From an uncultured Candidatus Binatia bacterium (lineage in GTDB: Bacteria > Desulfobacterota > Binatia > UBA9968 > JAJDTQ01): 64,000 nt of DNA. The position numbers were made by a program, and so were the translations under genes. The notes under the pieces were generated by a model. The model saw only the letters and a program-made list of their open reading frames with translations. It was not told the origin of the DNA and did no database searches. Position 1 is the stretch's first letter; each line of letters begins with the position of its first letter. The stretch is taken from positions 928,001 to 992,000 of the forward strand of contig OZ219754.1 of NCBI GenBank assembly GCA_964291295.2, written 5' to 3'. This document shows, one piece after another, positions 40,978 through 62,992 of the stretch.

Positions 40978-41377
40978 GGTTACCACCTGAGGGTTGGGCG
41001 CGTGGCGGCGGTGCCGGGACAGGCAGCACAGGAGCCGATGCTGGCCATGATTTGGCGGAGGGAGCCCGTTCGTTGCCGACCTCGACGAGCACTACCGTGG
41101 GCCGGGGCCGGCCAGAGTAAGCGGATGAAGACTGCCGACAACATGAAACGGAAACCGCTCGGCATGGAATTCAGAGAGGAGGACAAGAGAACCAGCACAG
41201 CCATTGTGGACCAGTTGTTAGCCTCCGGGTGCCGTCCAGTTCAAGTGTGGCATGCCGCTCGCCTGCTTGCATGGTTGCCCTCCCTTGGTTCCGTGACAAG
41301 GAGTCGGTCGGAGCACATGACTTTATCCTTCATGTTTTGTCTAATTCCATAATCTCGTACAAAGGGAGGACCAATCA

Positions 41378-41923
41378 ATGCCCGACATCGCCATCGAAAA
41401 ATCCACCTTCGAGCGCCTTCAGCGTCATGCAAGGCCACTTGTGGATACGACGGACACTGTCATCAACCGGGCTCTGGACGCGCTGGAGCTTCGGGACGGG
41501 CATACCAAACCGGAAGAGAACGCGGCGGTCGTGGATCGTTCGGTCGATCCGCGAAAATTGCCGGATCTGACCCATACGAAGATTCGGGACGCATTGCTCG
41601 CAGGACAACGCGTCGTCAGACCAAACTGGAATCTGCTGCTCGAGAAGGCATTGGTCCTTGCGATGAAGCAGGTTGAAAACATGGACAGGCTCATGCATCT
41701 CTGCCCGGCAAACATGGTGCGAGGCCGCAAGGAGGATGAGGGATACCGCTACGTCGCCGAAGTTGACGTTTCATTCCAGCTCATGTCCGCGAACCGTGTG
41801 TGTGAAGCGCTGGTGGCCGTTGCCGGGAGCCTTGGAATCGGACTCGAGATCACGTTCATGTGGCCCTGCAAAGAGGGGGCAGAGTATCCGGGCGAGACGG
41901 CACGGTTGGTACTGCCCGGCTGA
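41378..41923 (+). CDS. Hypothetical protein with an RHH-like N-terminus (resembles the 'SepA-like' family)
   Basis: TFERLQRHARPLVDTTDTVINRALD; PDLTHTK...NWNLLL...GYRY...FMW..KEGAEYPG; SD GGGAGG. Confidence 0.65.
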   Translation: MPDIAIEKSTFERLQRHARPLVDTTDTVINRALDALELRDGHTKPEENAAVVDRSVDPRKLPDLTHTKIRDALLAGQRVVRPNWNLLLEKALVLAMKQVENMDRLMHLCPANMVRGRKEDEGYRYVAEVDVSFQLMSANRVCEALVAVAGSLGIGLEITFMWPCKEGAEYPGETARLVLPG

Positions 41924-42110
41924 CCGGGGCGGGCGGAAGCAAGCGGAGTGGGCCGACGTCTTTGCCGGGTTCCGATCTGGGGAGAGGCGTCGGGCACGCG
42001 AGAGGCATCCGTCGCGCGAGCAGAGACGATGATGCCGAACCGGGCGCGGCGGCGCGCCCGGGGCGCGGTGTTGAACAATGCGGTTTTGAACAGGTGGAGG
42101 ACGAATTCAA

Positions 42111-43716
<1,606 letters not shown>

Positions 43717-43739
<23 letters not shown>

Positions 43740-44850
43740 GGGAAAGTTCCCGCCCGACCAGCGTCTCGACTGGCCGAAGCTGATCCCGTTCATCGGGCCG
43801 GCGTCCGCGGCGCTGGCGCGTTATGACGGGATGCTCGCCGCAATTCCGAACTCCGGTGTTCTGCTGGCGCCGCTGGCCACCCGGGAGGCGGTGCTCTCTT
43901 CGAGGATCGAGGGCACGCAGGCCACCATGGGAGAGGTGCTGCAATTCGAGGCCGGGCGGGAACCCGCCTCATCGGAACGGCGCGAGGACATCCTCGAAGT
44001 GCTCAACTACCGGGACGCCATGCGGCGGGCGGCAAGGATGCTTGATGAGTTGCCGCTGAGTCAGCGCGTTGTCCGCGAGGCGCATCGCGTATTGCTTGCC
44101 GGGGTGCGTGGCCGAGGCAAGTCGCCCGGTGCCTACCGGCGCGTCCCCAACTGGATCGGACCGCCCGGCTGCACCGTTGATAACGCCCGGTTCGTCCCCG
44201 TCGGCGCGGAAAGGTTGCCCGACGCCATGAGCGCCTGGGAGCGCTACTTCCACGAGGAGGCACCCGATCGGCTGGTGCAACTCGCCATTCTGCATGCCGA
44301 GTTCGAGGCCCTGCATCCGTTTCTGGACGGCAACGGACGCCTGGGACGGATGCTGGTGCCCCTCTTTCTTTGGCAGGCCGGCCTCATCCGGGCACCCGTG
44401 TTTTACATCAGCGCCTATTTCGAGGCCCGGCGCGATGCCTACTACGACGGGTTGCTCGCCGTGTCCCGGGATGACGACTGGACCGGTTGGTGCCGCTTCT
44501 TTCTGGAAGCGGTGCGCATGCAAGCCGAGGACAACCTGGGAAAAACCGACAGGATTCTCAAGCTGTATGAAGGGATGAAGGGCCGCATGCCGGCCATGAC
44601 GCGCTCCCAATACGCCATCCGCGCGTTGGACTGGATATTCGAGTGGCCGATCTTCAGGACCACCGATTTCATCGCCGCCGCAGGCATTCCAAAGCCCACC
44701 GCGCGACGGATCCTCAAGGTTCTGCGCGAAGGCGGCATCCTGGAGGTCATCATCAAGGGCCAGGGCCGCCGGCCTTCCGTCCTGGCGTTCCCCGCGTTGC
44801 TGGACATCACGGAGGGGGCGGGGGAGGGAGAGGATGAGGGTGGATTTTGA
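43717..44850 (+). CDS. Fic-family protein with a C-terminal winged HTH
   Basis: [21 protein letters not shown]-terminal [19 protein letters not shown]; overlaps the hsdM stop. Confidence 0.93.
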
Positions 44851-44860
44851 GACTCACTGA

Positions 44861-44998
44861 TGACAGACAAGATGCGTTGTGGGTCACTTTCGAGGGAAAT
44901 GTGGTCGACAAACCGCTTTGTTGCTCATTTATGACACACAACTGGCATTGTGGATCACTTTTGCCAGGAATATGATACACAAATCCCTTTGTGGGGCA
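44861..44998. promoter_or_regulatory. Array of four 26-bp imperfect palindromes TGAnnnACAA-N6-TTGTnnnTCA
   Basis: 44861 TGACAGACAA-gatgcg-TTGTGGGTCA; 44902 TGGTCGACAA-accgct-TTGTTGCTCA; 44932 TGACACACAA-ctggca-TTGTGGATCA; 44973 TGATACACAA-atccct-TTGTGGGGCA. Confidence 0.8.
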
Positions 44999-45059
44999 TG
45001 ACTGAGCGACAACGGAAGTGAGCGACAACGGAACAGTAAGCGGCGCAGAGGGGCTGTTC

Positions 45060-45476
45060 ATGATCGACCATGAAAAATTCAAATCGTCCCTGAAACGTCT
45101 GGAGGAGCAACACGACAACTACCGGCCGCTGGACGAAAGCCTGCCCGAACTGAACCAGGAGGGAATCGCCGAGTCGGTTATCCAGCGTTTCGAGACCTGC
45201 TACGACTGCATGTGGAAGGTGCTGAAAAGATATCTCAACGAGAAATTGGGTATTGCCGACGTGCCCAACAGCCCCAAGCCTCTCATCAGGGTAGCTTATG
45301 AAAACGGCTTGTTCGCTTCCCCGTTGGAAGACTGGCTGGAATATGCCGAAGCACGCATCAATACGTCGCACGATTACGACGGCGCGAAGGCGAAAGCCTG
45401 CTTGGCATTGATGCCCGCATTCATCGACGACGCCATAGGTCTGTACCAGACCATAACCGAGCAAACATGGGAATAG
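45060..45476 (+). CDS. HEPN RNase toxin (HI0074/nucleotidyltransferase-substrate-binding family)
   Basis: IQRFETCYDCMWKVLKRYL, SPKPLIR, RX4HXY motif RINTSHDY. Confidence 0.9.
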   Translation: MIDHEKFKSSLKRLEEQHDNYRPLDESLPELNQEGIAESVIQRFETCYDCMWKVLKRYLNEKLGIADVPNSPKPLIRVAYENGLFASPLEDWLEYAEARINTSHDYDGAKAKACLALMPAFIDDAIGLYQTITEQTWE

Positions 45477-47137
45477 GCCCCTCCATCGACATCACCGCCG
45501 GGCAACGCAGAACCATCCTGGCGCTGCTCGAACGCCACCTCCCGGATACCGAGGCTTGGGTATACGGCTCCCGGCTCAAAGGGACCTCTCGCCCGCAATC
45601 CGACCTCGACATGGTGGTGTTCGCAACGCCCGGTCAGAAGCGCGCCGTGTCCGATCTCCGTGAGGCGTTCGAAGAAAGCAATCTCCCGTTCCGGGTGGAC
45701 CTGTTCGTCTGGGACGAGGTGCCGGAGTCGTTCCGGGGGCAGATTGAGGAGGAGCATGTGGTGCTGGTGCCGGACCGAAACAGGATGCAGACGGCGGTTT
45801 CGGCAAAGTGTGGTTGGCCAACCGCGACTATCCGTGAGATTTCCGAGAAAGTGGCCATGGGTCCCTTCGGATCGTCCATCAAGGTCGAGACCTTTGTTCC
45901 GGAGGGCGTGCCCATCATCAGTGGCCAACATCTTCACGGCGTTCGGGTCGACGACGCCCCTGGCTTCAACTTCATCACTCAAGAGCACGCGAAGCGGCTC
46001 GAAAACGCCAACGTTCGCCGTGGCGACGTGGTCTTCACTCATAGAGGCAACATAGGGCAGGTCGCCTATGTGCCGGAACGCTCGCGCTTCGACCGCTACA
46101 TCATTTCGCAGAGCCAGTTCTACATGCGTTGCGACAGATCAAAGGCTGTTCCCGAGTTTGTCGCCCTGTACTTCACTTCACCCGAAGGCCAGCACAAGCT
46201 GCTGGCCAACGCATCCCAAGTAGGGGTTCCGTCCATCGCGCAACCTGTAACCTATCTGCGCACAATCGAGATTCCTCTCCCTCCCCTCCCCGAACAACGC
46301 GCCATCGCCCACATCCTCGGCACACTGGACGACAAGATCGAGTTGAACCGACGAATGAACGAGACGCTGGAGGCGATGGCCCACGCCCTGTTCAAGTCCT
46401 GGTTCGTCGACTTCGACCCCGTCCGCGCCAAAATGGAGGGACGCGACACCGGACTGCCGGAGGAGATCGCCGATCTGTTTCCGGACCGGCTGGAGGAGTC
46501 CGAGTTGGGCGAGATTCCGGCGGGGTGGGAGGTCAGGACGTTGGGCGACATTTGTCACAAGCCGCAATACGGTTACACGGCTTCTGCCAAGGTTGACGCC
46601 GTAGGGCCACACTTCTTGAGAATAACGGACATTAACAAAGAGTCGTGGGTCTCCTGGTCTCGTGTGCCATACTGCGAAATAACAGAAAGTGATTTGCGGA
46701 AGTATCGACTCGAAAAAGGTGACATTCTTATCGCTCGGATGGCAGATCCTGGGCATGGTATCCTGGTTGAGGAGGACGTTGAGGCGGTTTTCGCGTCGTA
46801 CTTGATACGATTCAGGCCTACGAAGAGACACGATGCTCGAATATTGCAGTATTGGCTCAAGTCCGACAAGTACTGGCAATGGGTCAAGAGTCGAGCTTCG
46901 GGGACGACGAGGATGAGCCTAAACGCACCGGTGCTTAGTGGACTACCTGCTTTGGTTTCATCCGACGCCGTTGCAAAAGGGTTCTCGGCAGCGATCGACG
47001 TCTTTCGGGATCGGTTGGTTGTGATCGTCAAGGAGATGGAGTTGCTCAGCTCCTTGCGGGATATGCTGTTACCCAAACTAATATCCGGCGAAATCCGCAT
47101 TTGTGAGGGCAAGCGAAGGATGGGAGTGAAGCCATGA
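45467..47137 (+). CDS. hsdS: Type I R-M specificity subunit fused to an N-terminal minimal nucleotidyltransferase (MNT)
   Basis: aa 1-100: YGSRLKGTSRPQSDLD (GSX10DXD), LPFRVDL; then TRD1, PLPPLPEQRAIAHILGTLDDKIELNRRMN, GEIPAGW, TRD2, LRDMLLPKLISGEI. Confidence 0.93.
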   Translation: MGIGPSIDITAGQRRTILALLERHLPDTEAWVYGSRLKGTSRPQSDLDMVVFATPGQKRAVSDLREAFEESNLPFRVDLFVWDEVPESFRGQIEEEHVVLVPDRNRMQTAVSAKCGWPTATIREISEKVAMGPFGSSIKVETFVPEGVPIISGQHLHGVRVDDAPGFNFITQEHAKRLENANVRRGDVVFTHRGNIGQVAYVPERSRFDRYIISQSQFYMRCDRSKAVPEFVALYFTSPEGQHKLLANASQVGVPSIAQPVTYLRTIEIPLPPLPEQRAIAHILGTLDDKIELNRRMNETLEAMAHALFKSWFVDFDPVRAKMEGRDTGLPEEIADLFPDRLEESELGEIPAGWEVRTLGDICHKPQYGYTASAKVDAVGPHFLRITDINKESWVSWSRVPYCEITESDLRKYRLEKGDILIARMADPGHGILVEEDVEAVFASYLIRFRPTKRHDARILQYWLKSDKYWQWVKSRASGTTRMSLNAPVLSGLPALVSSDAVAKGFSAAIDVFRDRLVVIVKEMELLSSLRDMLLPKLISGEIRICEGKRRMGVKP

Positions 47138-47634
47138 CCGATGGACTGCTCACCGGTCCTGACCAAAAGGAAGGCCTGTCTCTCGTTTACGCCAAGGCTT
47201 TGGCGGTGCGCGCGGGCTACTCGGTTTCGGTGCCGGGGCCTGACCGAGACAGCGTCGATTTGCGGATTCACGCGGGCGGCGCGTACCGCCCGGCTCTGGA
47301 ACTGCAACTCAAGGCCACGGCCAGCTTCGGCCAGCCGAGAAACGGCACCCTGCCGTTTCGACTGTCCATGAAGAACTACAATGATCTTCGCGTCGAGACG
47401 CAGACGCCACGGCTGCTCGTGGTGCTGGAGCTTCCCAAGGAAGAGGCGCGTTGGTTGACCGTGACCAAGGAGAAGCTCGTTCTTCGGCGTCGAGCCTACT
47501 GGCTGAGCTTGCAACAGGACCATGAGGAAATCACAGGCCAGAGGACAGTAACCGTTCACATTCCCGAACAGAACCTACTCGATGTTGAGGCCCTGCAGAA
47601 GCTGATGGAACAGTCCAGGGTGGGAGAACTCTGA
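47134..47634 (+). CDS. DUF4365-like PD-(D/E)xK domain protein
   Basis: DRDSVDL...LELQLKAT, NYNDLR, PRLLVVL, AYWLSL; ATGA overlap with hsdS. Confidence 0.85.
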   Translation: MTDGLLTGPDQKEGLSLVYAKALAVRAGYSVSVPGPDRDSVDLRIHAGGAYRPALELQLKATASFGQPRNGTLPFRLSMKNYNDLRVETQTPRLLVVLELPKEEARWLTVTKEKLVLRRRAYWLSLQQDHEEITGQRTVTVHIPEQNLLDVEALQKLMEQSRVGEL

Positions 47635-48782
47635 TGAAAGTCAGCATTGATGATCGTGGGGCGCTGATCGCGATTTCTCCGGCGGCGCTGTCTGCCTACG
47701 CCCGCAGCGCGGGTTGGAGCCAGCACGAAGTGTATCGTGAGCACTCCGACATCTATGTTGGCGAGGCGCTGCCGGAGATAATCGTTCCACGCACGACGCG
47801 CCTGGGAGACTATGCCAGTACGGTGGCGGCGTTGATCGAAACGTTTGCGCAAGTTGCCGGCCAGGATGAATTGACCGTGTTCCGCTCGCTGGTGACGACG
47901 GACCGCGACGTTATTCGTATTCGGGCGACGGGGACCGATGATGGCAGCCTGGGGTTGAACGATGGTGTGGACTTGATCGAAGGCGCCCGTGACATGGTGT
48001 TGTCGGCAGCGTGTTCACTCCAAGACCCGCGGCCGGTGCACCGCGCGGGAGCGAACAGGGAGGCAGCGGACCTGCTTCAGACGATGCGGCTTGGACAGAC
48101 GGCCCAAGGCAGCTTTGTGGTGGCATTGTTGACGCCGGTTGTGCCGCCGCCTATTCCGACATTGTTCAAAGACCCGGATGACCATAACGCGCCGATTGCC
48201 CGCCGGATGACGAGGCGTCTTGTCGAAGCGCTTGGTGCGGTGCGGCGGGCGGCGGAACGAGCGAGTTCCGGCGATGGCGATGTCTTCGAAGAGACGGTGG
48301 CCAGCGGGGTGAGCGCCAATCTCTGCGAAGCACTGGCCCGAATCATCAAGCCGTTTCCGGCGTTGGACGTTGATGTCTCTTGGGCTGGAACACGACCGAT
48401 GACGGTGCGAAGGAATGTTGTCCGTTTCGGTCAAGCGGATGCGGCACTGTTGCGTGAGGCTGCGCACTCGTTCCGCGAGCGCGCACCGAAACCCGACGTG
48501 TCTCTCTACGGCTTTGTTCACCTCCTGGAACGCGCAGAGAGCGATGCCCTTGGAACCATCCGACTCCGCACAGAAATCGACGGGCAACGGCAGTCGGTCG
48601 TGGCGGTCCTGGATCAGGTGGATTACGAGCGCGTGCTTGAAGCCCACAAGGCTCGGCTGCCTGTCGTGCTCAAGGGTGATCTTGAGCGTACAGGCCAGCG
48701 ATGGAGGCTGTTGAGTCCTCACGTTGAAGGCGTTTTGCGCGATGATGGGCAGGAAACGGAAGACGGACGGGAAGACGGATGA
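47634..48782 (+). CDS. Hypothetical protein translationally coupled to the DUF4365-like gene
   Basis: TGATG overlap; LSAYARSAGW, RLGQT..GSFV, GVSANLCEAL, possible C-terminal OB-like region. Confidence 0.75.
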   Translation: MKVSIDDRGALIAISPAALSAYARSAGWSQHEVYREHSDIYVGEALPEIIVPRTTRLGDYASTVAALIETFAQVAGQDELTVFRSLVTTDRDVIRIRATGTDDGSLGLNDGVDLIEGARDMVLSAACSLQDPRPVHRAGANREAADLLQTMRLGQTAQGSFVVALLTPVVPPPIPTLFKDPDDHNAPIARRMTRRLVEALGAVRRAAERASSGDGDVFEETVASGVSANLCEALARIIKPFPALDVDVSWAGTRPMTVRRNVVRFGQADAALLREAAHSFRERAPKPDVSLYGFVHLLERAESDALGTIRLRTEIDGQRQSVVAVLDQVDYERVLEAHKARLPVVLKGDLERTGQRWRLLSPHVEGVLRDDGQETEDGREDG

Positions 48783-49011: not shown

Positions 49012-50169
49012 GTGACCCGTGTCTCCATCAATCCCGAACTCCTCCGCTGGGCGCGCGAACGCGCCGGCGTGGCGCAGGAAGACTTGGCCGTTCGGTTCAA
49101 GAAGTTGCCTGCGTGGGAAACCGGCCAGGAGCGGCCCACGCTGAAGCAGGTGGAGGCGTTTGCCCACGCCGTCCATGTGCCAGTCGGCTATCTGTTCCTC
49201 TCGGAGCCGCCGGAGGAGGTCGTGCCCATCCCGGACTTCCGTACTTTTGCCGGCCACGCGACCACGCGGCCCAGCCCCAACCTGCTGGACACGATCTACG
49301 CCTGCCAGGAGCGGCAGAGCTGGTATCGGGACTTCGCCCGCGTCGCTGGGGAGTCGGAGCTCGGTTTTGTCGGCAGCGCGTCGGCGGAGGCGTCCCCTGA
49401 ACTGGTCGCGGCCGAGATGCGGGAGACCTTGGGTTTCGATTTGGTTGCCCGCCGAGAGTGTTTGACCTGGACCGACGCGCTGCGATTGTTCATCCGCAAA
49501 GCCGACGAGGCCGGTGTCCTCGTCATGGTGAGCGGTATCGTGATGAGCGACAACCACCGCCATCTCGATCCGGCCGAGTTCCGCGGCTTCGCAATTTGCG
49601 ATCCGCTCGCGCCGCTGGTTTTCGTCAACGGCAAGGACACGAAGGCAGCACAGATGTTCACGCTTGCCCACGAACTCGCACACGTCTGGCTCGGCGCCTC
49701 GGCCCTGTCGAACCTCGGTGCCGTGCCGGGAGCGGATTTCCGGCTCGAGGAGGTGTGGTGTAATGCGGTGGCGGCTGAGCTTCTGGTGCCACTGCATGCC
49801 TTGCGATCCGATCTGCGACGCAACGAACCGTTGCCGGACACGCTGGCCCGGTTGGCCCGCACTTTCAAGGTCAGCACGTTGGTCATCCTGCGCCGCCTGC
49901 TCGACTCGGGCTGGCTGAACCGCACGAGGTTTGACACCGCCTGGGCGCAAGAGAATGAACGTTTGCGGCGGCTCGTCCATGCGGGCGGTATTGCCGGCGG
50001 TGACTTCTATCGCACGACCGTCGCACGGGTCGGACGCCGGTTCGTACGCGCACTGGTGGCAAGCACGCTTGAGGGGCAGACGCTCTATCGAGACGCATTC
50101 CGGATGTTGGGCGTCAACAAGACCGAGACCTTCAACAATCTCGGGCGCGAAGCCAGGGTGATGGGATGA
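49012..50169 (+). CDS. XRE-HTH + ImmA/IrrE (COG2856) zinc metallopeptidase
   Basis: LRWARERAG...WETGQERPTLKQ, PDFRT, FRGFA, FTLAHELAH, EVWCNAVAAELLVP. Confidence 0.92.
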   Translation: MTRVSINPELLRWARERAGVAQEDLAVRFKKLPAWETGQERPTLKQVEAFAHAVHVPVGYLFLSEPPEEVVPIPDFRTFAGHATTRPSPNLLDTIYACQERQSWYRDFARVAGESELGFVGSASAEASPELVAAEMRETLGFDLVARRECLTWTDALRLFIRKADEAGVLVMVSGIVMSDNHRHLDPAEFRGFAICDPLAPLVFVNGKDTKAAQMFTLAHELAHVWLGASALSNLGAVPGADFRLEEVWCNAVAAELLVPLHALRSDLRRNEPLPDTLARLARTFKVSTLVILRRLLDSGWLNRTRFDTAWAQENERLRRLVHAGGIAGGDFYRTTVARVGRRFVRALVASTLEGQTLYRDAFRMLGVNKTETFNNLGREARVMG

Positions 50170-50672
50170 GCGTCTGTCTCATCGATTCGAAGTTCTTCAT
50201 TCAGGCCAGGAATCTGCACTATGGTTTCGATTTCTGCCCCGCATTCCGGGACTGGCTGGTTGCGCAGAACGGCGCGGGCACGGTAGCGAGCATCAAGAAG
50301 GTCGCGGACGAACTGCAAGCCGGAGACGGCGAGTTGGCGAAGTGGGCCGCAGTTCGGGGCAGCGGATTTTTACTGCCACCAGATGGCACGGTGTTGCCTG
50401 CGCTTCACGCCGTGAGCGACTGGGCGAGCCGCCACGGATGCTAGCCAGCGGCGGTCTCAACCTTTCTGCAGGTTGCGGACTACTGGCTTGTCGCACATGC
50501 GTTGGCTCACGAATGCATCGTCGTCACGCACGAAGTCCCGGCCGACACCACCCGCAAGATCAAGATTCCGAACGCCTGCATCGGTCTCGGCATCCGCTGC
50601 ATGACCCCCTATGAAATGCTTCGCCGGGAGCGCGCGAGGTTTGTCTTGGGAACGGGCAGGGTGGCGGCCTGA
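50166..50672 (+). pseudogene. DUF4411 PIN-like toxin interrupted by one in-frame TAG (50442-50444)
   Basis: FIQARNLHYGFDFCPAF...*PAAVSTFLQVADYWLVAHA...VVTHE...KIKIPNAC...ARFVL continues in frame to TGA at 50672. Confidence 0.85.
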
Positions 50673-50890
50673 TGGCCAGAGTCACCGAATGCGAGGCGGA
50701 AGACGCCGCTTTCGATTGGCTGGCCGGGCTGGACCATGCTGTTTTGCACGGTGCGGAGGTCGGCCCGGATGGTCCGACGCTGGGGCGTAGCAGCTGCGAT
50801 GAGGTGCCCTTGACCAGTCGGCTCCGCGGTGCGCTCGCACGCCTCAACCCGCACCTGTCCACGGAGACGCTGGAGGATGCGTCGTTCAAA
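50672..50890 (+). pseudogene. hsdR 5' fragment 1 (about 73 codons)
   Basis: TECEAEDAAFDWLAGL...HGAEVGPD...RLRGALARLNPHL aligns with the HsdR N-terminus at 55999. Confidence 0.85.
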
Positions 50891-50994
50891 GTGTGGCAAA
50901 CTTCGACGGGGGCGTGGGACGAGCCATGCCGGTGCGCTGCTGTTGCGACCGATGATCGCACGCAGCCGCCCCCAACTGTAAAGGATATTTGAGG

Positions 50995-52272
50995 ATGCAC
51001 TATGTCAATTCTGTCATTCCTTTGATGAAAGGGCCAATGGAATTGCGTTGCGGCGATGACAAGAGGCCTGGAGGCCCCACTGTTTCGGTTGTAGCCGAGA
51101 TGCCACTGTCACCGATGCCGCGTGTTCTTATCAAAATCCCACATCAAAGGCATCTGGGTATGCTTGATGAGAGTCCAGATCATGAAAAAACCGTCAGAAT
51201 GCGGCTGCTTGGCAGTTCGACGGATTTTGAAGGGTTTGAGGTACTTAAGAGGAAGACTGATTTCATGAACCAGACCACGACAGTCGAGCCGTCCCAGGAG
51301 CCGGTGACTACGAGAGATGCGGGCAGGCGTATGAGTAAAGTTCAATTTTCCATCATAAATTTCCCGAGCCAGCAAAAAGTATCGATAGACGTTTGCGTTG
51401 TTCCAGACTTGTGGAGAATAGAAATCACGCCCAAAGCGGAACTGGAAAAGACCCTAAAGGTGTTGAAATCCAATGGCGGATACGGACTCACACACGATGG
51501 AGTTCTCCAGAGGTCGGATGGCGGAATGTTCTCCGTCGGAGAATCTGAGGTACTCCTGAGAACTCTCTATTTTTTCCTGTCGTTCGCCCGGGGAGGGCGT
51601 TGCGGTGTGGGGCTCGCGAAGGGCTGGGATGAGGCGTGCAAAGAGGTTTGGACCCAGTGGGGAAGCTATCCCACGCATCCGTGGGTTTGGCTGTCCTCAT
51701 GGCTGGACCATCAGCGTAACAACGAAGCCAGTCTCGCTGAAGCATTCGCTGGTTTTTGGCGCAAGTTCAAGAATAAACTGTCTCCGACAGAGAACCCAAT
51801 TCTCATGGCGTTATACTGGTATATGCGGGCGAACGAGTCTGGCGACGACCCATATACAGCCATAATCTTAGTTCAGGCGGCTCTCGAAAGGCTATCGTGC
51901 GAGGTTCTGTCGGCCTCAGAGCCGAGCGTGAAGGGTGGACAGAGAGAGAAAATCAGTGCGGCATGTAAAATCAGCAAGGCACTTCGGGAGGCACACATCG
52001 ATGCGGCTGTTCCCGCGAAGTGCAAAGAGTTGTTGGCTCTAAAGAAAAAGGATGGTCCCCATCTACTAGCTTACATACGGAACGATCTCGTTCATTCCAG
52101 GATGGACCGATACATGTCCCCGGAAGCGTACATGCAGGCTCGAGAGCTGGGCTTGTGGTATGTCGAACTGCTGCTATTGCGGCTGATTGATTATAAAGGA
52201 CAATACGCCAATCGGATTACCTATATGTACAAAGACAGAAAGGAGCCCGAGCTCGTTCCTTGGGCATGTTGA
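50995..52272 (+). CDS. ApeA-like HEPN-domain protein
   Basis: LYFFLSFARG, ALYWY..AN, QAALERL, HEPN-like RNDLVH; markedly lower GC; start uncertain. Confidence 0.7.
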   Translation: MHYVNSVIPLMKGPMELRCGDDKRPGGPTVSVVAEMPLSPMPRVLIKIPHQRHLGMLDESPDHEKTVRMRLLGSSTDFEGFEVLKRKTDFMNQTTTVEPSQEPVTTRDAGRRMSKVQFSIINFPSQQKVSIDVCVVPDLWRIEITPKAELEKTLKVLKSNGGYGLTHDGVLQRSDGGMFSVGESEVLLRTLYFFLSFARGGRCGVGLAKGWDEACKEVWTQWGSYPTHPWVWLSSWLDHQRNNEASLAEAFAGFWRKFKNKLSPTENPILMALYWYMRANESGDDPYTAIILVQAALERLSCEVLSASEPSVKGGQREKISAACKISKALREAHIDAAVPAKCKELLALKKKDGPHLLAYIRNDLVHSRMDRYMSPEAYMQARELGLWYVELLLLRLIDYKGQYANRITYMYKDRKEPELVPWAC

Positions 52273-52284
52273 CGAGAGTGACGA

Positions 52285-52399
52285 ATGAACCGCTATTCCG
52301 CCGAGTCCGAGGTAGAGGCCGCTGCCCTCGAATGGCTTGCGAGTCTCGGCCGGTGGGGTCGTCCAAGATCCAGATATTGTTCCCGACACGCTCGGTACC
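52285..52399 (+). pseudogene. hsdR 5' fragment 2 (about 38 codons, frameshifted)
   Basis: [16 protein letters not shown] is nearly identical to Hsd[17 protein letters not shown]; after a shift it reads DPDIVPDT versus GPDIAPDM. Confidence 0.85.
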
Positions 52400-52565
52400 T
52401 ATTGGGACGGGATTGTTGCTTATTGCTACCATCGGGAATTTCGTTGCGGGAGTTGCGGAAGCTGGTTTGCGTTGCCAAGTTGAGAAATAGTTCGCTGCTT
52501 GCCTCTTGAAACTTGGACCGCCTGGTTGACGGGAAGCAAACCGCCCGATCTTCGGAGATAGTGCA

Positions 52566-53804
52566 ATGAGTGTAATGACCCCCGAACACAACGCACCGCC
52601 GCGGATGGAGCGCCTCAAGGTGCGAAATTTCCGCGCATTGCGCGACGTCGAGTTCAAGCACCTGACGCCGCTTACCGTGTTGATCGGGCCAAACGGCAGC
52701 GGAAAGTCCACGGTGTTCGACGTGTTCGCCTTTCTCGCCGAGTGTTTCGAGGGCGGTTTGCGCCGGTCGTGGGAGAAACGCGGCAAGGCGAGAGAGTTGA
52801 AATCGCGTGGCGGAGAAGGCCCGATTCTGATCGAAATTGCCTACCGCGAACAGCCACACAAGCCGCTGATCACCTATCACCTCGAACTGGACGAGAGACA
52901 CGGGCGGCCTGTGGTGAAGCGGGAATGGCTGGGCTGGAAGCGTGGAAGCGATGGGAGACCGTTCAATTTTCTCGACTATGCCGAGGGAGGTGGGCGCGTC
53001 GTTTCGGGTGAACTGCCGGATGCCGATGACGAGCGGATCGAAGTGCCCTTGAGTTCTCCCGACATCCTTGCGGTCAACGCACTGGGCCAGTTGGCCGAGA
53101 ATCCCCGCGTCGTCGCGCTGCGCAATTTCATCATGGGATGGCATGTGGCCTGTCTTTCGTCGGAGGAGGCCAGGGGAGAGCCCGAGGCCGGGCCTCAGGA
53201 ACGTCCGAGCAGGGCTGGAGACAACTTGGCCGATGTGATCCAGTACCTGTCCGACGAGCATCCCGAACGCCTGGAGTTCATTTTCGGCAAGCTCAGGGAC
53301 AGGATTCCCAAGTTCGAGGCCTTGACCGCGAATCCAATGCCGGATGGCAGGCTGCTGATGCGGATCAAGGATGCCCCGTTTGCCGAGCCGGTCATGGCTC
53401 GGTTCGCGTCGGATGGCACGCTCAAGATGCTCGCCTGCCTGACCTTGCTGCACGACCCGGTTCCGGCTCCGTTTATTGGCATCCAGGAGCCGGAGAATTT
53501 TCTGCATCCCCGCCTGCTGTACGGGCTGGCGGAAGAATGCCGAGAGGCGGCCGGGTCCACACATGTCCTCGTGACCACGCATTCACCGTTCTTTCTCGAC
53601 GCGCTGCGGCCTGATGAAGTGCGGGTGCTTTGGCGCGGCGAGGACGGCTACACGCGATGTCACTCCCTGAAAGATGACGAAAAGGTCAGGGCGTTCATGG
53701 ATGCCGGCGCCCAGTTGGGTCATCTCTGGATGGAAGGGCAGTTCGGGGTCGGAGACCCGTTGACCGAGTGCGGAATGCCCGCTCAGGGTGGAGGCGGAAA
53801 CTGA
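52566..53804 (+). CDS. AAA_21/AbiEii-like ABC ATPase (Walker B altered)
   Basis: [39 protein letters not shown]. Confidence 0.88.
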
Positions 53805-53805
53805 T

Positions 53806-53904
53806 ATGGCCGCCTCCCATCTCCAGGTTCAGCCTCCCATTTCGGGGTTCACGTGGAAGAGTCAAGTGGAGGAAGTCTCGGTGGAGGCGTTTCTTGCCGT
53901 CTGA
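53806..53904 (+). pseudogene. Remnant of the ATPase partner gene (DUF4276/TOPRIM-like N-terminus)
   Basis: MAASHLQV...VEEVSVEAFLAV* resembles the HLxxLVEExSxEAFL start; contains internal micro-duplications. Confidence 0.5.
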
Positions 53905-53930
53905 CCGTGCGCAAGCGAGAACACTGATCC

Positions 53931-55670
53931 ATGACCATCAGCGACGAGGAAATTCGCCGGCAATTGTGTTTGAGTGAAGACAGCCTCTGGGAGTTCAAGC
54001 AGATCGAATTCAACGGTGATACCCCTACCCGCCCTCGCAGAGACGATCTTGCCGATGAGCTGGGCGCCTTCGCCAACGCGGATGGCGGCGTGCTTCTGTG
54101 CGGTGTGTCCGACGACGGACGGATCCAGGGGATGTCCCGGAAACAGATGGAAGCGGTGGACCGCCTGCTGGTGGAAGTCGGCACCAACTCCATACGGCCC
54201 GCTCTGCGCATCCGGGTTTATCATCGGGAACTTGATGGAAGAGCTTTCGTGCTCGTGGAAGTGCCGCGGGGCGATGCGGTCCACGAGCGGGACGGGCGCG
54301 CGTTCATCCGTGTTGGTTCGAGCAAGCGCCGTCTGGACCACGACGAACGGCTGAGGCTGGCACAAAGGCGCGCACAGAGCCGCTACTTGTGGTTCGACAG
54401 GCAGGTCGTGCCGCAGACCGGCTTCGAGACCCTCGGCGAGCGTCTCTGGGAACCGCTCCTCAGCGTGTCCGGAGCGGTGGACCCGCGCCGGGGTCTGCTG
54501 AATCTTCGCCTGTTGGCGCAGGACGAAGCCGGTAGGCTCCGGGCCACTGTCGCGGGCGTACTGCTTTGTGCCCGGTCGCCACAGGACTGGTTGCCGCAAG
54601 CCGCCATTGTGGCGACACACTATCGTGGAGAAGATCGTGCCTCCGGTCAGTTGGATGCTCAGGAAATTGTCGGTCCACTACCCGTCCAGATCGCCGACGC
54701 GGTGAAGTTCGTCGTGCGCAATATGCGCGTTGCGGCGCGCAAGGCACCGCAGCGCGAGGACATGCCGCAGTACAGCACGGCCGCGGTGTTTGAAGCCGTG
54801 GTGAACGCCGTGGCACACCGCGACTATTCCATCTCCTCGCGGCGCATCAGACTCTCGATGTTCAGGGACCGCCTCGAGATCGACTCGCCCGGTCCGCTTC
54901 CCAATGGCATGACCCTGGACGGCATGGAGGCAAGCCAGGCAACCCGCAACGAAGTGATCGCTTCCGTGTTCGGGAGGATTCCCGTTGGCGATATCCCCGG
55001 ATCGAACCATCGCGGCTACTTGATGGAACGTCGGGGAGACGGCGTGTCGATCATTCACAAGGAGACCCGGGAAACCGCCGGTGCCCCGCCGGAATACCAT
55101 GTCGTTGACGGCTCCAACGTCGTGCTGAGCATCCCCGCGGCCAGACTCGAACTTGTCCCCGCCGACGCCACGGTCACGGTGCACTCGGGAGGAGCGCCCC
55201 TGGTTGGAGTCGAGGTTCTGGCACTTTTTCCGAACAAGACATGGCGGCGGGCAACTACCGACGAGGTTGGCGAGGCGGTTCTTGATCTGTATACGACAAA
55301 CCTTCCGATGACCGTATACGCCGCGGCCCCGGGGTATGCGGCGGGGCTCCAACGGGAATGGCGTCCGCACCGGGGAGGGCTGCTGCTGGAACTCGGCCCG
55401 CTCCCGTCCGGGGGCGCGGTTATTTTCCCCCAAGACACCGGGCATCTCCCCGGCCTGCGGGGGCGGCTGAATCCGATACGCGACACCTCTGACCGGACGT
55501 ATCTGTACGCGGACAATGTCTCTATTGAGGAGGGACGACAGCAGCCCGTGCCCTTTCGGCTGGGCAAGGCATTGCGGCTGGTGGACGCGCACGGCGCCGA
55601 GTTGTCGGTAACCATCGTGGACATTGTCGGACGTTCCGCATTGGTGGAATATCGGCGGGACAAGTCATGA
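53931..55670 (+). CDS. Schlafen/AlbA_2 domain + RecG-C/HATPase-like protein with an extra beta-rich C-terminal domain
   Basis: EDSLWEFK, AFANADGGVLLCGVSDDG, EAVVNAVAHRDYS, RLEIDSPG, MERRGDG. Confidence 0.87.
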   Translation: MTISDEEIRRQLCLSEDSLWEFKQIEFNGDTPTRPRRDDLADELGAFANADGGVLLCGVSDDGRIQGMSRKQMEAVDRLLVEVGTNSIRPALRIRVYHRELDGRAFVLVEVPRGDAVHERDGRAFIRVGSSKRRLDHDERLRLAQRRAQSRYLWFDRQVVPQTGFETLGERLWEPLLSVSGAVDPRRGLLNLRLLAQDEAGRLRATVAGVLLCARSPQDWLPQAAIVATHYRGEDRASGQLDAQEIVGPLPVQIADAVKFVVRNMRVAARKAPQREDMPQYSTAAVFEAVVNAVAHRDYSISSRRIRLSMFRDRLEIDSPGPLPNGMTLDGMEASQATRNEVIASVFGRIPVGDIPGSNHRGYLMERRGDGVSIIHKETRETAGAPPEYHVVDGSNVVLSIPAARLELVPADATVTVHSGGAPLVGVEVLALFPNKTWRRATTDEVGEAVLDLYTTNLPMTVYAAAPGYAAGLQREWRPHRGGLLLELGPLPSGGAVIFPQDTGHLPGLRGRLNPIRDTSDRTYLYADNVSIEEGRQQPVPFRLGKALRLVDAHGAELSVTIVDIVGRSALVEYRRDKS

Positions 55671-55998: not shown

Positions 55999-59133
<3,135 letters not shown>

Positions 59134-59439: not shown

Positions 59440-62400
59440 ATGGCGTTGAGAGCCTTTGAAACGGATGACCTCGAGCGCGCGGTGGGGCCTCTATCTCGGT
59501 CACGCGCGGGCGGGACTATTTCAAGCGCGGCAAGGTGCTCCGGGTCGAGTTCGATTCGCGCGGCTGGATCCACGGGGAGGTTTCGGGCACTCGGCGGAAG
59601 CCCTGCACGGTCGTGGCCGAATGCGAGACAGGAAGCGGCGGGAGGCTGCTCTCGGTGGAAGGTCAATGCTCCTGTCCGGTCGGCTACAACTGCAAGCACA
59701 TCGCCGCCGTTCCGCTCGCCGCCCGGGAGCTGTTGCCGGGGGGGCATGACCGTCGCATGAGCGCGCGTGGGGTGATTTCGGACGATGTCCGGATCTGGCT
59801 CGCCCGATGGCCCAACGGAACCGCCGCCGCGGCCGCGCCCCGTACCTCCGGCCCGCCGGAGCCCGGCCGGGTCCATCTGTTCTACGTCATCCGGATGGAT
59901 GCACAGCACCGCATGGGCATCGAGCCCCACTGCGCCCTACTCAACAAGGACGGCACCATCGACAACAGTACCGAGCGTCTCGAACGGCACTCGATCTGGA
60001 CCCGGGGAAACCTGACGGTTCAGGATGCCGGTCTTCTCGGCAGGCTCTCCCTGTTCGCGGGGGAGAGTTACCGGCCATGCAGTTCGTGGCCTGACGGGGC
60101 GGTCCTGGTCGATCTCGTGCGCGAAATCGTCGAGACCGGCCGCGCACGCCTTCACGACATCCATGGCCCCGCACTGTCCTGGGCCGAGCCGCGCCACTGC
60201 GAGTTCGTCCGGGAGATCGACGAGTCCGGGACGCAGCATGTGGCGGTACGCGATCGGAACGGGTCCGCGTTGACCCTGCTGCCGTTTCCGACACCACTCG
60301 TCGTGGAGCCCGCGACCGGCCGGACGAGCGTCGCCGCCACATCGCTTTCGCACCGGCTGGCCGCGTGGCTCGCGGAGGCGCCGCCGGTGCCGCACGGAGC
60401 GGTCGATGCGGTGGCCAGGAAACTGTCGCAGGTCAGCAAGCACGCTCGGTTCCCCCGGATTTTGCAAGTGGAGGAACGCACTGGTGTCGTCCCGGAACCG
60501 GTTCTGATCCTCTATGGGCATGAGCCGAAAGTCATGTCGTCCGGCCCCGGCGCACCTCGCCGCCGACGTCCGGACACGGACGGCTCGATGGTCTGGCCGT
60601 TCGCCCGCCTGGAGATGGCCTATGCGGGCGCCCGCGAGCGCGTGCGGCCCGGCAAGGGCGGCGACCTGCGGATGGTCGGCGAAGACGCTGTGGTACTCCG
60701 GCGGGGCCATGAGCGAGAAGCCGCGTTCTCGGCGCGTCTTCAGGAAGTCGTGGACGCTTGGCGCTCCACGCTCGGGCCGCTGCGCCCTTCCAGGCTCGAA
60801 CTGTTGCGCCATCCCAATCTCAGTGCGCCGCGCGAAGCTCGCGAGGCCGATGTCATCTTCCCGCTCCCGAGGCACGAGGAGATGGGTCGATCCGGGGGAG
60901 GTCTCGGCTTCGTCCTGAGAGCGGTCCCACAACTCCAAGCCGAAGGCTGGCGCGTCGAGGTTGACGAGTCATGGCGGTTGCGGCTGCACGAGGGGGCGGT
61001 GGCATTCTCGACGTCCCTCCAACCCGCGGCCGAGGACTGGTTCTCGGTCTGCCTGTCGCTGGAGGCGAACGGCCAGCGGTTCGACATGACGCCGCTCCTC
61101 CTGCAGATGATCGAAGATCTGCCGGCCGACGAAGGGGGTCAGTTGGAGCCAGGGTTCGACATCAAGCGCCACTTGGCCGACAAGTTGTTTCACGCACGGC
61201 TTGAGGACGGCTCCTGGCTCGTCCTCGACGGCTCCCGGCTCGCACCGTTCGCCGAAGCGTTTCTCGAAGCGCAGGGGCTGCTGGAGTTCAATCGGGCCGA
61301 TGCGGCCAGCCTGTTCGATTTGGCCGAAGAGCTGGAGGGTTGCGGCGCGCCGTGGACCGGCGGACGGGAGTTCCTCGATCTGGGCGCACGGCTCCGGTCG
61401 CTTGCCGAGGCGCCGGAGCAGCCGGCACCGGCTGCGTTGCAGGGAGAACTGCGTCCCTACCAGCGCGCCGGCTACGGCTGGCTCAAGGCGCTCTCTTCGA
61501 CCGGCTTCGGCGGGGTGCTGGCCGACGACATGGGGCTTGGCAAGACATTGCAGGCGCTCGCGCTGCTGGCACACCGGCATCTGGAAGAGAAGACGCCGCT
61601 TCCGAGCCTCCTGGTGGTGCCGACGAGCCTGGTTGGCAACTGGCGGCGCGAAGCCGCGCGCTTCGTGCCCGACCTGAAGCTGCCGGTGCTGCACGGCCCC
61701 GACCGGCAGCGGCGATTCGCGGAAATCCCCGGGCATCACCTGGTCATCACCACCTATCCGCTGCTCAGCCGGGACCACGCGGCGCTGTTCGGCCATGACT
61801 ATGACATCGCGGTGCTGGACGAGGCGCAGGCGGTGAAGAATCCGACGGCGGCCGTCTCGAAACGCATACGGGAGGTCCGCGCCCGCCAGCGCCTGGCGCT
61901 GACCGGGACGCCGCTGGAAAACAATCTCCTGGAGCTCTGGACGCTCTACGACTGGCTGGTTCCGGGGCTGCTCGGCAACCGCAAGAGCTTCACGGCGGCG
62001 TTCCGGACCCCCCATCGAGAAGCATGGCGACCGCGCTCGGCAGCGGCAGCTCTCGATCCGGGTGAAGCCCTTTCTGATGCGGCGCAGCAAGGAAGAGGTG
62101 GCCCCCGAACTGCCGGAAAAGACGGTGATCGACGAGATGGTGCCGCTCGAAGGCGCCCAGGCCGCGCTGTACGAGAGCATCCGGACGGTGATGGACCGGC
62201 GGGTTCGGGAGGCCATCGCCGTGCGGGGTCTGGCGGCGTCGCGCATGGCGATCCTCGACGCGCTGCTCAAGCTGCGCCAGGTCTGTTGCGATCCGGGTCT
62301 GGTGAAGCTCGACGCAGCCCGCAAGGTAACCGCCAGCGCCAAGCGGGCGCGCCTTCTCGCGTTGCTGGACGAGCTGGTCGCCAAGGGGCGCAAGGTGCTG

Positions 62401-62862
62401 GTCTTCTCCCAGTTCGTGGAGATGCTGAAGCTGATCGAACGGGACATCACCGCGCGCGGCTGGGACTACGCCATGCTGCACGGTGCGACCAGGAAGCGCG
62501 ACGCGCAGGTGGCGGCATTCCAGTCGGGCAACCTGCCGCTGTTCCTGGTGAGCCTGAAGGCCGGCGGCACGGGCCTCAATCTGACCGCGGCCGACACGGT
62601 GATCATCTACGATCCCTGGTGGAATCCGGCGGTGGAGCGTCAGGCCATGGACCGGGCGCACCGCATCGGCCAGGGCAAGCCGGTCTTCGTCCATCGGCTG
62701 GTGGCCGAGAGCACCGTCGAGGCGGCAATCCAGTGGATGCAGGCGCGCAAGCAGGGCCTGACCGACGCGCTGTTCGAGGGCACGGGCCAAGGGCCGCTGG
62801 CGCTGACGGGCGAGGATATCGATGCGCTGTTCGGGCCGGCGCCTACGGCCCCCGGCCCGTGA
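59440..62862 (+). pseudogene. SWIM zinc-finger SNF2 helicase with two frameshifts
   Basis: CSCPVGYNCKH, LRPYQ, LADDMGLGKT, DEAQ, LTGTPLENN, then LVFSQF, SLKAGGTGLNL, DPWWNP, DRAHRIGQ; frameshifts near 59500 and at the C6 run 62008-62013. Confidence 0.88.
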
Positions 62863-62992
62863 ACGCAGCGGAAGGAAGCCGCCGGAACAAGAAGGCCGCG
62901 GAGGCCGGGGGCGGAAATGACGCAGACGACGGAGCGCGGCGCTGGCACGAGACCTGGAAGAAGCCGTGCGAGGCGGCCGAGGCCATCCGTCA

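Follow-up and report, generated by a model that had tools for sequence, protein, structure and literature searches.

Within the window (the whole stretch of DNA analysed, 64 kb), a gene for a predicted HEPN toxin overlaps the start of an ORF at 45467-47137, whose 556-aa product begins with a minimal nucleotidyltransferase (MNT) domain and continues, with no stop codon separating the two, into the type I specificity subunit HsdS (Table 1). Both genes lie in a type I restriction-modification (R-M) operon in which hsdS has its partners, hsdM upstream and hsdR downstream. A Fic/DOC gene is inserted between hsdM and HEPN, as it is between hsdM and the cassette in loci L010, L028, L041, L049, L058 and L064. 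The HSDR_N, SWI2_SNF2, T1R_D3 and T1RH-like_C domains of HsdR span all 1044 aa, and the operon holds further defence candidates, namely PDC-M02A/B, a HEC-01-like ATPase and a Schlafen/AlbA_2 protein. A sequence-only reading had described a HEPN gene with an RX4HXY motif overlapping the next ORF, and an intact MNT (GSX10DXD) running in frame into a two-TRD HsdS. Its coordinates and ORFs were confirmed, the overlap measuring 10 nt, the domain matches and the uninterrupted junction bear out the fusion, and its family assignments were right (PF08780/TIGR01987 for HEPN, PF18765/PF01909 for MNT and PF01420/PADLOC for HsdS).

Table 1. Features of the HEPN and MNT-HsdS locus and its operon, in window coordinates.
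Feature	Coordinates	Strand	Basis or detail
hsdM, type I methyltransferase subunit	42111..43739	+	PF02384 3.2e-105, PF12161 1.9e-27
Fic/DOC-family protein, C-terminal HTH	43669..44850	+	Fic_N 6.2e-26, Fic 2.4e-17
Repeat-rich intergenic region upstream of HEPN	44860..45033	+	Four 27-nt repeats, two 15-nt repeats
HEPN toxin gene (predicted), HI0074 family	45060..45476	+	138 aa; PF08780, TIGR01987, motif
10-nt overlap of HEPN stop and MNT-HsdS start (ATGGGAATAG)	45467..45476	+	Sequence
MNT (minimal nucleotidyltransferase, HI0073 type) domain	45467..45769	+	Residues 1-101; PF18765/PF01909
Linker, residues 102-114	45770..45808	+	AF2 pLDDT; variable among relatives
HsdS body: TRD1, central conserved helices, TRD2, C-terminal helix	45809..47137	+	PF01420, PADLOC, AF2
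hsdR, intact type I restriction subunit	55999..59133	+	1044 aa, 8.9 kb downstream of hsdS

The HEPN protein carries the motif R99-x4-H104-x-Y106 (RINTSHDY) and, by Pfam, is a bare 138-aa protein without an ATPase domain, its single Pfam domain being PF08780 NTase_sub_bind (1.3e-21). It passes the cut-off of the NCBIfam model for the HI0074 family, TIGR01987 (56.7 bits, cut-off 55.8), and matches the PDB structures 1wty (9.6e-11) and 1jog (3.2e-8). The ATG at 45060 agrees with the start and length seen in relatives (138 aa in 57 of 61 full HEPNs), and the Rx4HxY motif with its acceptor tyrosine is retained in 57 of the 61. The fusion ORF begins within the final HEPN codons, giving a toxin-first gene order, and among 60 loci with a full HEPN, 55 show the identical 10-nt overlap. 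Median dN/dS for HEPN genes beside fused forms is 0.16 (213 pairs), indicating that HEPN is under purifying selection. A complex prediction combining two copies of the MNT (residues 1-110) with two of HEPN, run without controls, scored 0.23 against a mark of 0.32, a result that we weigh neither in favour of binding nor against it. Upstream of HEPN, each 27-nt repeat contains ACAA-N6-TTGT, and these are the sole four occurrences in the window. We rejected the repeats as a conserved TA operator, because a match precedes HEPN in only 1 of 60 relatives; a promoter scan of 41000-48000 returned 0 sigma-70-like sites.

Residues 19-101 of the fusion match PF18765 and PF01909 (5.5e-8 and 1e-7, both passing the cut-offs), and the MNT matches HI0073 (PDB 1no5) at 4.2e-16. 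Its GSx10DxD motif reads G34-S35-x10-D46-x-D48, and the third aspartate, D78, is present. Across 97 fused proteins G34, S35, D46 and D48 do not vary, and D78 is found in at least 90%; the MNT motifs are intact in 52 of 53 fused forms and remain so in fused loci without HEPN. The sequence-only reading had proposed testing for purifying selection, and fused MNT gave the same dN/dS of about 0.16 as HEPN (median 0.16 over 481 pairs, versus 0.20 for free MNT genes), which points to purifying selection on the MNT part of the fusion. Against the NCBIfam MntA equivalog model NF047752, the domain reached 37 bits and failed the cut-off of 60. Judged by these matches the MNT is related to MntA but is no MntA equivalog, and because its score falls under that cut-off, its homology to proven AMPylators is distant.

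PF01420 matches the HsdS body in two stretches (7e-24), the PADLOC Specificity_I models span fusion residues 117-549 (7e-103), and one of the PADLOC profiles, PDLC03086, covers residues 122-547 at profile positions 12-448 of 458. In the AF2 model this body has pLDDT mostly >90, with long helices at 274-314 and 500-540. These data indicate a complete two-TRD specificity subunit. The linker, with AF2 pLDDT <50 at residues 105-113, is predicted to be disordered, and it differs in length and sequence across relatives. In-frame GTG codons occur at V98, V99 and V101, downstream of GAGGAGGAG, and internal initiation at GTG98, GTG99 or GTG101 could yield an MNT-less HsdS; in-frame GTG or TTG codons follow SD-like GAGG motifs in 31 of 53 fused genes. 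We had considered that the linker might be free of internal starts and dropped the idea, a Met being present there in 34 of 111 assessable proteins. The linker Met and the GTG/TTG codons are probably a by-product of the codons for a conserved E-x-E-H-V-V-L.

The fusion extends well beyond this locus. The MNT part was matched at E<=1e-3 by 1323 of 1453 candidate proteins (305-973 aa), where 1323 counts protein clusters at 90% identity, and MNT and HsdS domains occur together in 120 of 120 among the matches listed. The sequence-only reading had called for a search for MNT-HsdS fusions preceded by HEPN genes and had named a junction stop in relatives as evidence against its proposal. No such stop was found: 52 of 80 related loci, from many phyla, hold intact in-frame fusions, and in 38 of these a full HEPN immediately precedes the fused gene. 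One of the 52, L025, was assigned by hand (550-aa ORF, HsdS coverage 98, threshold 100). An HsdM or HsdR match is present in 51 of the 52 intact-fusion loci; across related loci HsdM is 66-83% identical and lies upstream of HEPN in most, and HsdR is 57-80% identical and lies downstream of MNT-HsdS. Of 64 loci with the cassette inside an R-M operon, 60 encode the antitoxin within HsdS (52 intact, 8 cut) and at most 4 encode it separately. The fusion has been retained through many TRD swaps, and a distant fused form, in a lineage 30% identical, is carried on plasmid pZMOB01 of Zymomonas mobilis ATCC 10988. Taken together, these comparisons indicate that the fusion is more than chance and is widespread in bacteria. 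Contigs from a public run cover 44800-47200 without a single difference, one of them spanning 45355-45869; they give no independent support because the run may be the window's own sample. An assembly error was considered as the origin of the fusion and rejected, given the 1323 matching clusters, the 52 of 80 intact loci and the contigs with 0 differences.

The cassette also occurs in other states. The HEPN-MNT pair is free-standing in 16 of 80 loci, of which 12 have no R-M match, and HEPN is missing or cut in 10 of the 52 fused loci, a decay pattern in which the toxin is lost and the antitoxin retained. We counted the free-standing loci and this decay pattern as autonomous TA behaviour; part of the HEPN frameshifts in fused loci may be long-read assembly errors. 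MNT is absent from 55 of the 120 closest HsdS proteins, and deletion variants include P0243, with only 15 MNT residues, and L040, a truncated fusion. Fused forms are interspersed among free ones on the tree, with at least 4 changes forced by well-supported branches and 8 by parsimony. On Acetobacter plasmids MNT and HsdS lie in the same frame, one stop and four codons apart. Within the phylum from which the window comes, few genomes have the cassette (4 of 401 sampled).

To account for these observations we favour, at roughly even chances, the capture of an HI0074/HI0073-type HEPN-MNT toxin-antitoxin cassette by a type I R-M operon, with antitoxin supply locked to HsdS. The cassette would have inserted into a horizontally mobile operon, between its hsdM and hsdS. 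Being toxin-first, it would have put the antitoxin gene against hsdS, and MNT would have become the HsdS N-terminal domain via a flexible linker, a fusion made possible by this gene order, an unusual one among HEPN-MNT pairs. By analogy with characterised type VII HEPN-MNT systems, the MNT domain would AMPylate Tyr106 by the RNase motif and so silence HEPN. The architecture suggests that the antitoxin is produced largely or solely within the HsdS polypeptide, so that its dose, stability and location would follow HsdS. Losing or truncating hsdS or the operon would then remove the antitoxin, and the upstream toxin gene could persist; because AMPylation is covalent, antitoxin loss would free only newly made toxin, unless the modification were removed. 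The net effect would most likely be stabilisation (addiction) of hsdS and its island, and back-up growth arrest under phage attack is a possible extension of this addiction. HsdS itself has no need of MNT, since 55 of the 120 closest HsdS lack it, and the fusion persists without the toxin, as the 10 fused loci with HEPN absent or cut illustrate.

Capture with addiction has to be weighed against the fusion being functionally neutral, which we consider somewhat unlikely. Loss of one stop codon between adjacent, co-transcribed genes would have joined MNT to HsdS; the join would be tolerated because the HsdS N-terminus is free, and it would be common only through horizontal spread of the R-M family. 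The in-frame arrangement on the Acetobacter plasmids, the variable, predicted disordered linker, the intermixing of fused and free forms, the deletion variants P0243 and L040, the identity of HsdM (66-83%) and HsdR (57-80%) across phyla and the rarity of the cassette in the window's phylum are all consistent with it. A neutral appendage is harder to reconcile with retention through TRD swaps and in the 30%-identical Zymomonas lineage, with a fused MNT as constrained as the free one, and with the rarity of the separate-gene arrangement inside R-M operons (at most 4 of 64). The same predominance of antitoxin within HsdS (60 of 64) could instead reflect a guardian of the R-M system, the role inferred in the sequence-only reading. 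MNT would then silence HEPN only as long as MNT-HsdS was assembled into an intact M2S or R2M2S enzyme; once phage anti-restriction proteins acted, HsdS was degraded or the complex was disrupted, the RNase would be released to abort infection, as in PrrC/EcoprrI. A HEPN behind restriction as a second line of defence is an idea found in the available text of PMC3710099 and PMC12707154; HEPN between hsdM and hsdS occupies the position of prrC (PMC3710099, available part), 'RM guardian' is already an accepted category that includes PrrC and PARIS (PMC12707154, available part), and the operon is crowded with defence candidates. Yet the system lacks a sensor domain, and its HEPN lacks the ABC ATPase of PrrC; the pair also works as a stand-alone module (16 of 80 loci), 10 of the 52 fused loci do without the toxin, about half of the closest HsdS have no MNT, the GTG codons at V98, V99 and V101 may permit an MNT-less HsdS, and a dependence of MNT activity on complex state is conjectural. 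We therefore regard this guardian role as unlikely, and hold it equally improbable that MNT-HsdS and HEPN form a new, widespread class of R-M guardian with AMPylation dependent on restriction-complex state.

An older view of HI0073/HI0074 is that of a 'two-protein nucleotidyltransferase', and MNT might accordingly have HEPN as its substrate-binding partner and nucleotidylate DNA, a phage protein or one of the R-M subunits. The family names and the structural literature on HI0073/HI0074, as cited in the accessible part of PMC11586414, fit such a role, as do the MNT motifs that stay intact in fused loci without HEPN; on the other side, all characterised HEPN-MNT pairs in the introduction of that paper, the part drawn on here, are toxin-antitoxin pairs. 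With the RNase motif and acceptor tyrosine also retained in 57 of 61 HEPN relatives, we consider another MNT target very improbable.

If the captured cassette does couple antitoxin to HsdS, the fusion may tie a suicide switch to a restriction system. A second-line-defence role for HEPN RNases inside R-M operons has been proposed since 2013, and to our knowledge PrrC is the sole case in which the connection to the R-M enzyme has been worked out. A covalent antitoxin-HsdS fusion would be a concrete, testable physical link between a bare HEPN toxin and restriction, and it is abundant (1323 clusters), conserved in many phyla and carried by a plasmid of a harmless, cultivable bacterium, Z. mobilis ATCC 10988. 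A fusion of functional consequence would represent either a new route to R-M operon addiction or a novel type of guardian; one without consequence would be a clear case of a neutral domain fusion spread horizontally. An unannotated enzyme domain would, moreover, be hidden in many proteins that carry the label 'restriction endonuclease subunit S'. We found no description of an MNT-HsdS fusion in the literature searched; in the available text of PMC3710099 'HsdS' and 'specificity subunit' occur 0 times, and the label 'RM_TRD' in its figure 5 may hide a drawn example. The fusion is thus apparently undescribed so far.

The closest solved relatives are HI0073 and HI0074 of Haemophilus influenzae (1no5 and 1jog; MNT 4.2e-16, HEPN 3.2e-8), which share a short MNT without a long C-terminal helix and a HEPN with R-x4-H-x-Y but are two free proteins, whereas the MNT described here forms the N-terminal part of a type I HsdS. 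PrrC-EcoprrI (type Ic) is alike in having its HEPN RNase gene between hsdM and hsdS, as also seen in the related loci. PrrC, a HEPN anticodon nuclease, carries a regulatory ABC ATPase domain, and non-covalent association with the R-M enzyme keeps it masked; the HEPN described here, in contrast, is bare, and its link to restriction is a covalent antitoxin-HsdS fusion. HepT/MntA and the Legionella type VII system likewise pair an RX4HXY RNase toxin with a GSX10DXD antitoxin encoded by adjacent genes. According to the available part of PMC11586414, GSX10DXD MNTs AMPylate RX4HXY HEPNs and one such MNT is only 108 aa long; at about 108 aa, this Legionella MNT is similar in size to ours. The relationship is nonetheless distant (37 versus 60 bits for the MntA model; E 1.3e-3 for the Legionella HEPN, 8xdj), and while the MNT gene is 'almost always' first in HEPN-MNT gene pairs (PMC3710099, available part), here the toxin comes first and the antitoxin is fused to HsdS. 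An engineered N-terminal fusion of HsdM to HsdS from Staphylococcus aureus works as a methyltransferase and, once combined with HsdR, as a restriction enzyme (PMC6158711, available part); it too adds a polypeptide to the HsdS N-terminus, but it is artificial and joins two R-M subunits without a toxin-antitoxin component.

A sequence-only reading of this stretch had claimed that a HEPN gene (encoding a putative RNase toxin) overlaps an open reading frame in which a minimal nucleotidyltransferase (MNT, the putative antitoxin) runs on in frame into HsdS, the specificity subunit of a restriction–modification (R-M) system, and this was borne out by coordinates, domain matches, and motifs. The HEPN protein clears the cut-off that NCBIfam curates for its HI0074 family, its nearest solved structures are TTHA0048 (1wty) and HI0074 (1jog), and its motif, RINTSHDY, supplies R99, H104, and Y106. 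Residues 19-101 of the fusion form the MNT (PF18765 and PF01909 both above cut-offs; best structure match HI0073, 1no5, 4.2e-16), with catalytic residues G34-S35-x10-D46-x-D48 plus D78; PADLOC Specificity_I model PDLC03138 matches this part as well (residues 7-101). The remainder is a full HsdS, with PF01420 in two stretches and PADLOC Specificity_I models over residues 117-549. An AlphaFold2 model built with 97 fused homologues as input (mean pLDDT 85.3, pTM 0.73) was confident for the HsdS body and fell below pLDDT 50 in the linker, residues 105-113. No stop was seen at the MNT/HsdS junction in the contigs of a public run, possibly the window's own sample, which tile the whole stretch with 0 differences and include one crossing the junction. 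In-frame GTG codons at V98, V99, and V101 stand behind GAGGAGGAG and could serve as starts of an MNT-less HsdS.

Features in and around the HEPN–MNT-HsdS operon
Feature	Position	Strand	Remarks
hsdM	42111-43739		upstream of HEPN
Fic-family gene	43669-44850		upstream of HEPN
Direct repeats	44860-45033		in 209-nt fic-HEPN gap; four of 27 nt, spacing 41, 30, 41; two exact 15-nt repeats
HEPN	45060-45476	+	138 aa; Pfam NTase_sub_bind 1.3e-21
MNT-HsdS fusion	45467-47137	+	556 aa; start within last HEPN codons (ATGGGAATAG)
PDC-M02A/B, PADLOC candidate pair	47134-48782		DUF4365 protein (166 aa) and 382-aa protein without Pfam match; 1.7e-50 and 2.9e-118; first gene overlaps hsdS stop by 4 nt
HTH + M78 peptidase (ImmA/IrrE-like) gene, then DUF4411 (PIN-like) gene in two ORFs	49012-50672
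DUF4411, first half	50166-50444		profile positions 2-84
DUF4411, second half	50502-50672		profile positions 113-159
hsdR-like ORF	50672-50992		106 aa; first 74 residues 45% identical to N-terminus of intact HsdR
Three genes before intact hsdR	50989-55670		427-aa protein; AAA_21/HEC-01A-like ATPase (PADLOC 3.6e-147); Schlafen AlbA_2 + HATPase_c_4 protein
hsdR, intact	55999-59133		8.9 kb downstream of hsdS
SWIM zinc-finger + SNF2 helicase gene	59535-63038		1167 aa; directly downstream of hsdR

The fusion is widespread. When residues 1-135 were searched against 5.8 billion proteins, 1323 of 1453 candidates of 305-973 aa matched the MNT query (E<=1e-3), and among the matches listed (120 of 1323) all carry both MNT and HsdS Pfam families; 673 of 680 shorter candidates (30-304 aa) match the same MNT, some of them being cut fusions. 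When the 120 long matches are aligned, their MNTs share 53-83% identity with the window's, their linkers differ both in sequence and in length, and behind these come several types of the first target-recognition domain (TRD1) that are unrelated to one another; the MNT has thus stayed put while the TRDs behind it were swapped. Such an exchange behind a constant MNT is shown by a contig from another run, which joins window position 45765 (the MNT end) to 47074 with 507 different letters between. In three public runs, the central conserved region of HsdS (46258-46419) had a summed contig depth 12-80x that of flanking TRD sequence (3282 versus 117 in one run, X1), indicating that many organisms in those samples share the conserved core of this R-M family.

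A relative is encoded by 195 stretches of one-genome-per-species contigs; the best 80 of these, MAG records, comprise 52 intact fusions (one, L025, assigned by hand), 8 fusions cut short, 4 short MNTs with HsdS sequence downstream, and 16 free-standing MNTs. Titles of these 80 name Binatia, Latescibacterota, Acidobacteriota, Verrucomicrobiota, Gemmatimonadota, Rhodothermota, Spirochaetota, Nitrospirota, Actinomycetota, Thermodesulfobacteriota, Hydrogenedentota, and several proteobacterial orders. An HsdM or HsdR match is present at 51 of the 52 intact fusions and absent from 12 of the 16 free-standing loci. A full HEPN gene lies directly upstream of most intact fusions (38/52); in three (L016, L055, L075) an additional, divergent HEPN'-MNT' unit is joined on ahead of the fusion, one (L068) is not assessable at a contig end, and in ten HEPN is absent or cut, often a frameshifted remnant, although many locus records are long-read assemblies and part of these frameshifts may be errors. 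Of the 60 loci with a full HEPN, 55 conserve the 10-nt toxin/antitoxin overlap. Rx4HxY is unbroken in 57 of the 61 full HEPNs, and 52 of the 53 fused genes, the window's included, have intact MNT motifs. Purifying selection was evident in the pairwise NG86 medians, computed only from pairs with dS 0.05-1.5: dN/dS was 0.16 for fused MNT (481/1225 pairs used), 0.16 for HEPN beside fusions (213/703), and 0.20 for free MNT (32/66).

On a quick maximum likelihood tree of HEPN+MNT (59 rows; any row that lacked a full HEPN or had a short MNT was left out), free-standing pairs are dispersed among fused ones, with 8 fused/free changes by parsimony; well-supported branches force at least 4. One 'free' MNT (L040) ends in linker and the first TRD residues and is thus a truncated fusion. 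The 120 HsdS proteins closest in the central conserved region divide into 65 with MNT and 55 without (median 542 versus 427 aa), and one of them (P0243) retains just the first 15 MNT residues. Near-identical HEPN-MNT modules occur in separate phyla. Only 4 of 401 genomes sampled from the window's phylum gave a close match, namely the window's genome, which holds single copies of HEPN and MNT-HsdS, and three of one genus with free forms; the cassette thus moves horizontally along with a mobile R-M family.

Distant versions show that the link of this toxin–antitoxin (TA) type to the hsdS 5' end reaches back further than the close subfamily or has recurred more often. Zymomonas mobilis ATCC 10988 plasmid pZMOB01 (L083, NC_017180.1 3-5154) encodes an HI0074-family HEPN and, after a 4-nt overlap, a 527-aa 'restriction endonuclease subunit S' that begins with an MNT of ~100 residues (30% identity to the window's, motifs unbroken) leading directly into a TRD; hsdR follows. 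The Acetobacter ascendens LMG 1591 plasmid (L084, NZ_CP015170.1 67900-73039) carries HEPN, a 100-aa MNT, HsdS, and hsdR, with HsdS in the same frame as MNT after one stop and four codons; passing from split to fused would take a single stop codon's change. Both cultivable strains would be useful experimental hosts. Other variants have tandem MNT domains before HsdS (P0003, P0005, P0006, P0009; L016, L055, L075); the last three loci have a divergent HEPN' upstream (32-34% identical), as though another TA unit had been added in front and the inner toxin lost. Some MNT-HsdS proteins (P0002, P0006, P0007) contain an inserted nuclease domain, DUF559 (Vsr-like) or GIY-YIG, between the two TRDs, and at one locus (L041:7001-12631) a 1877-aa open frame starts as MNT-HsdS and is without Pfam matches past that part.

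The hsdS-hsdR interval is a row of defense-type genes. Both PDC-M02A/B members also lie downstream of MNT-HsdS in nine relatives (L015, L021, L045, L049, L055, L064, L072, L074, L077). The split in the DUF4411 gene reflects either a frameshift or gene breakage. The hsdR-like ORF, which looks like the 5' remnant of a different, diverged hsdR allele, ends where a lower-G+C block starts (0.49-0.55 at 51000-52500), and the island is probably composite. The block holds the 427-aa gene (no match in Pfam, NCBIfam, or PADLOC); this gene, the HEC-01A-like gene, and the Schlafen-type gene all sit between the hsdR remnant and the intact hsdR. Upstream of HEPN, each 27-nt repeat contains the palindrome ACAA-N6-TTGT, whose only 4 matches in the 64-kb window are here. 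Because the pattern occurs upstream of HEPN in just 1 of 60 related loci, the repeats look like a locus-specific operator array, perhaps tied to the Fic/HTH gene.

How might the fusion work? GSX10DXD MNT antitoxins transfer AMP to RX4HXY HEPN toxins, abolishing toxicity, and the Legionella MNT does so despite a length of ~108 aa, similarly short to the window's (passages of PMC11586414). The window's MNT domain would likewise AMPylate Tyr106 of HEPN and, since antitoxin and HsdS are made as one polypeptide, control of the toxin would track hsdS expression and HsdS stability. MNT is 'almost always' first in HEPN-MNT pairs, according to passages of PMC3710099, whereas here the toxin comes first, an order that leaves the antitoxin adjacent to hsdS; an enzyme with an engineered fusion at the HsdS N-terminus was still active (excerpts of PMC6158711). 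We put at about even the chances of this whole reading, in which MNT AMPylates HEPN, control follows HsdS, and the likeliest consequence is stabilization of hsdS and the operon (addiction).

Fusion anatomy, conservation, and selection bear out the earlier interpretation in part. Strict toxin–HsdS coupling is opposed by an MNT that is optional for this HsdS family, by a toxin often lost beside fusions, by HEPN-MNT pairs that appear to work alone elsewhere, and by the possible GTG starts. A guardian whose RNase is released once the R-M complex is disturbed is an unlikely reading, even with HEPN placed much as prrC is. That the fusion hitch-hikes neutrally is likewise unlikely, though slightly less so than the guardian. 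Another target for MNT is very improbable beside a HEPN whose own motif is so regularly intact. Coupling through MNT-HsdS, the reading we prefer, is a testable hypothesis.

Among HEPN-MNT modules the pair falls within the HI0074/HI0073 branch, and by its motifs it appears to work like a type VII TA; its MNT is not an MntA equivalog (37 versus 60 bits at the cut-off). HEPN occupies a position like that of prrC but has no counterpart of the PrrC ATPase domain. For HEPN genes in R-M operons, Anantharaman et al. suggested back-up roles similar to PrrC's, and they described R-M-associated HEPN domains as fusing only to nucleases, helicases, and ATPases; the searchable passages of that paper make no mention of an antitoxin-to-HsdS fusion (PMC3710099). 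PrrC and PARIS are listed as guardians in a review of R-M biology from 2025, in which a term count gave 0 occurrences of 'HEPN' and of 'nucleotidyltransferase' (PMC12707154). Databases already contain the architecture unremarked, under the NCBI name 'restriction endonuclease subunit S'. We conclude that known parts are combined here in an apparently undescribed architecture that is both abundant and conserved.
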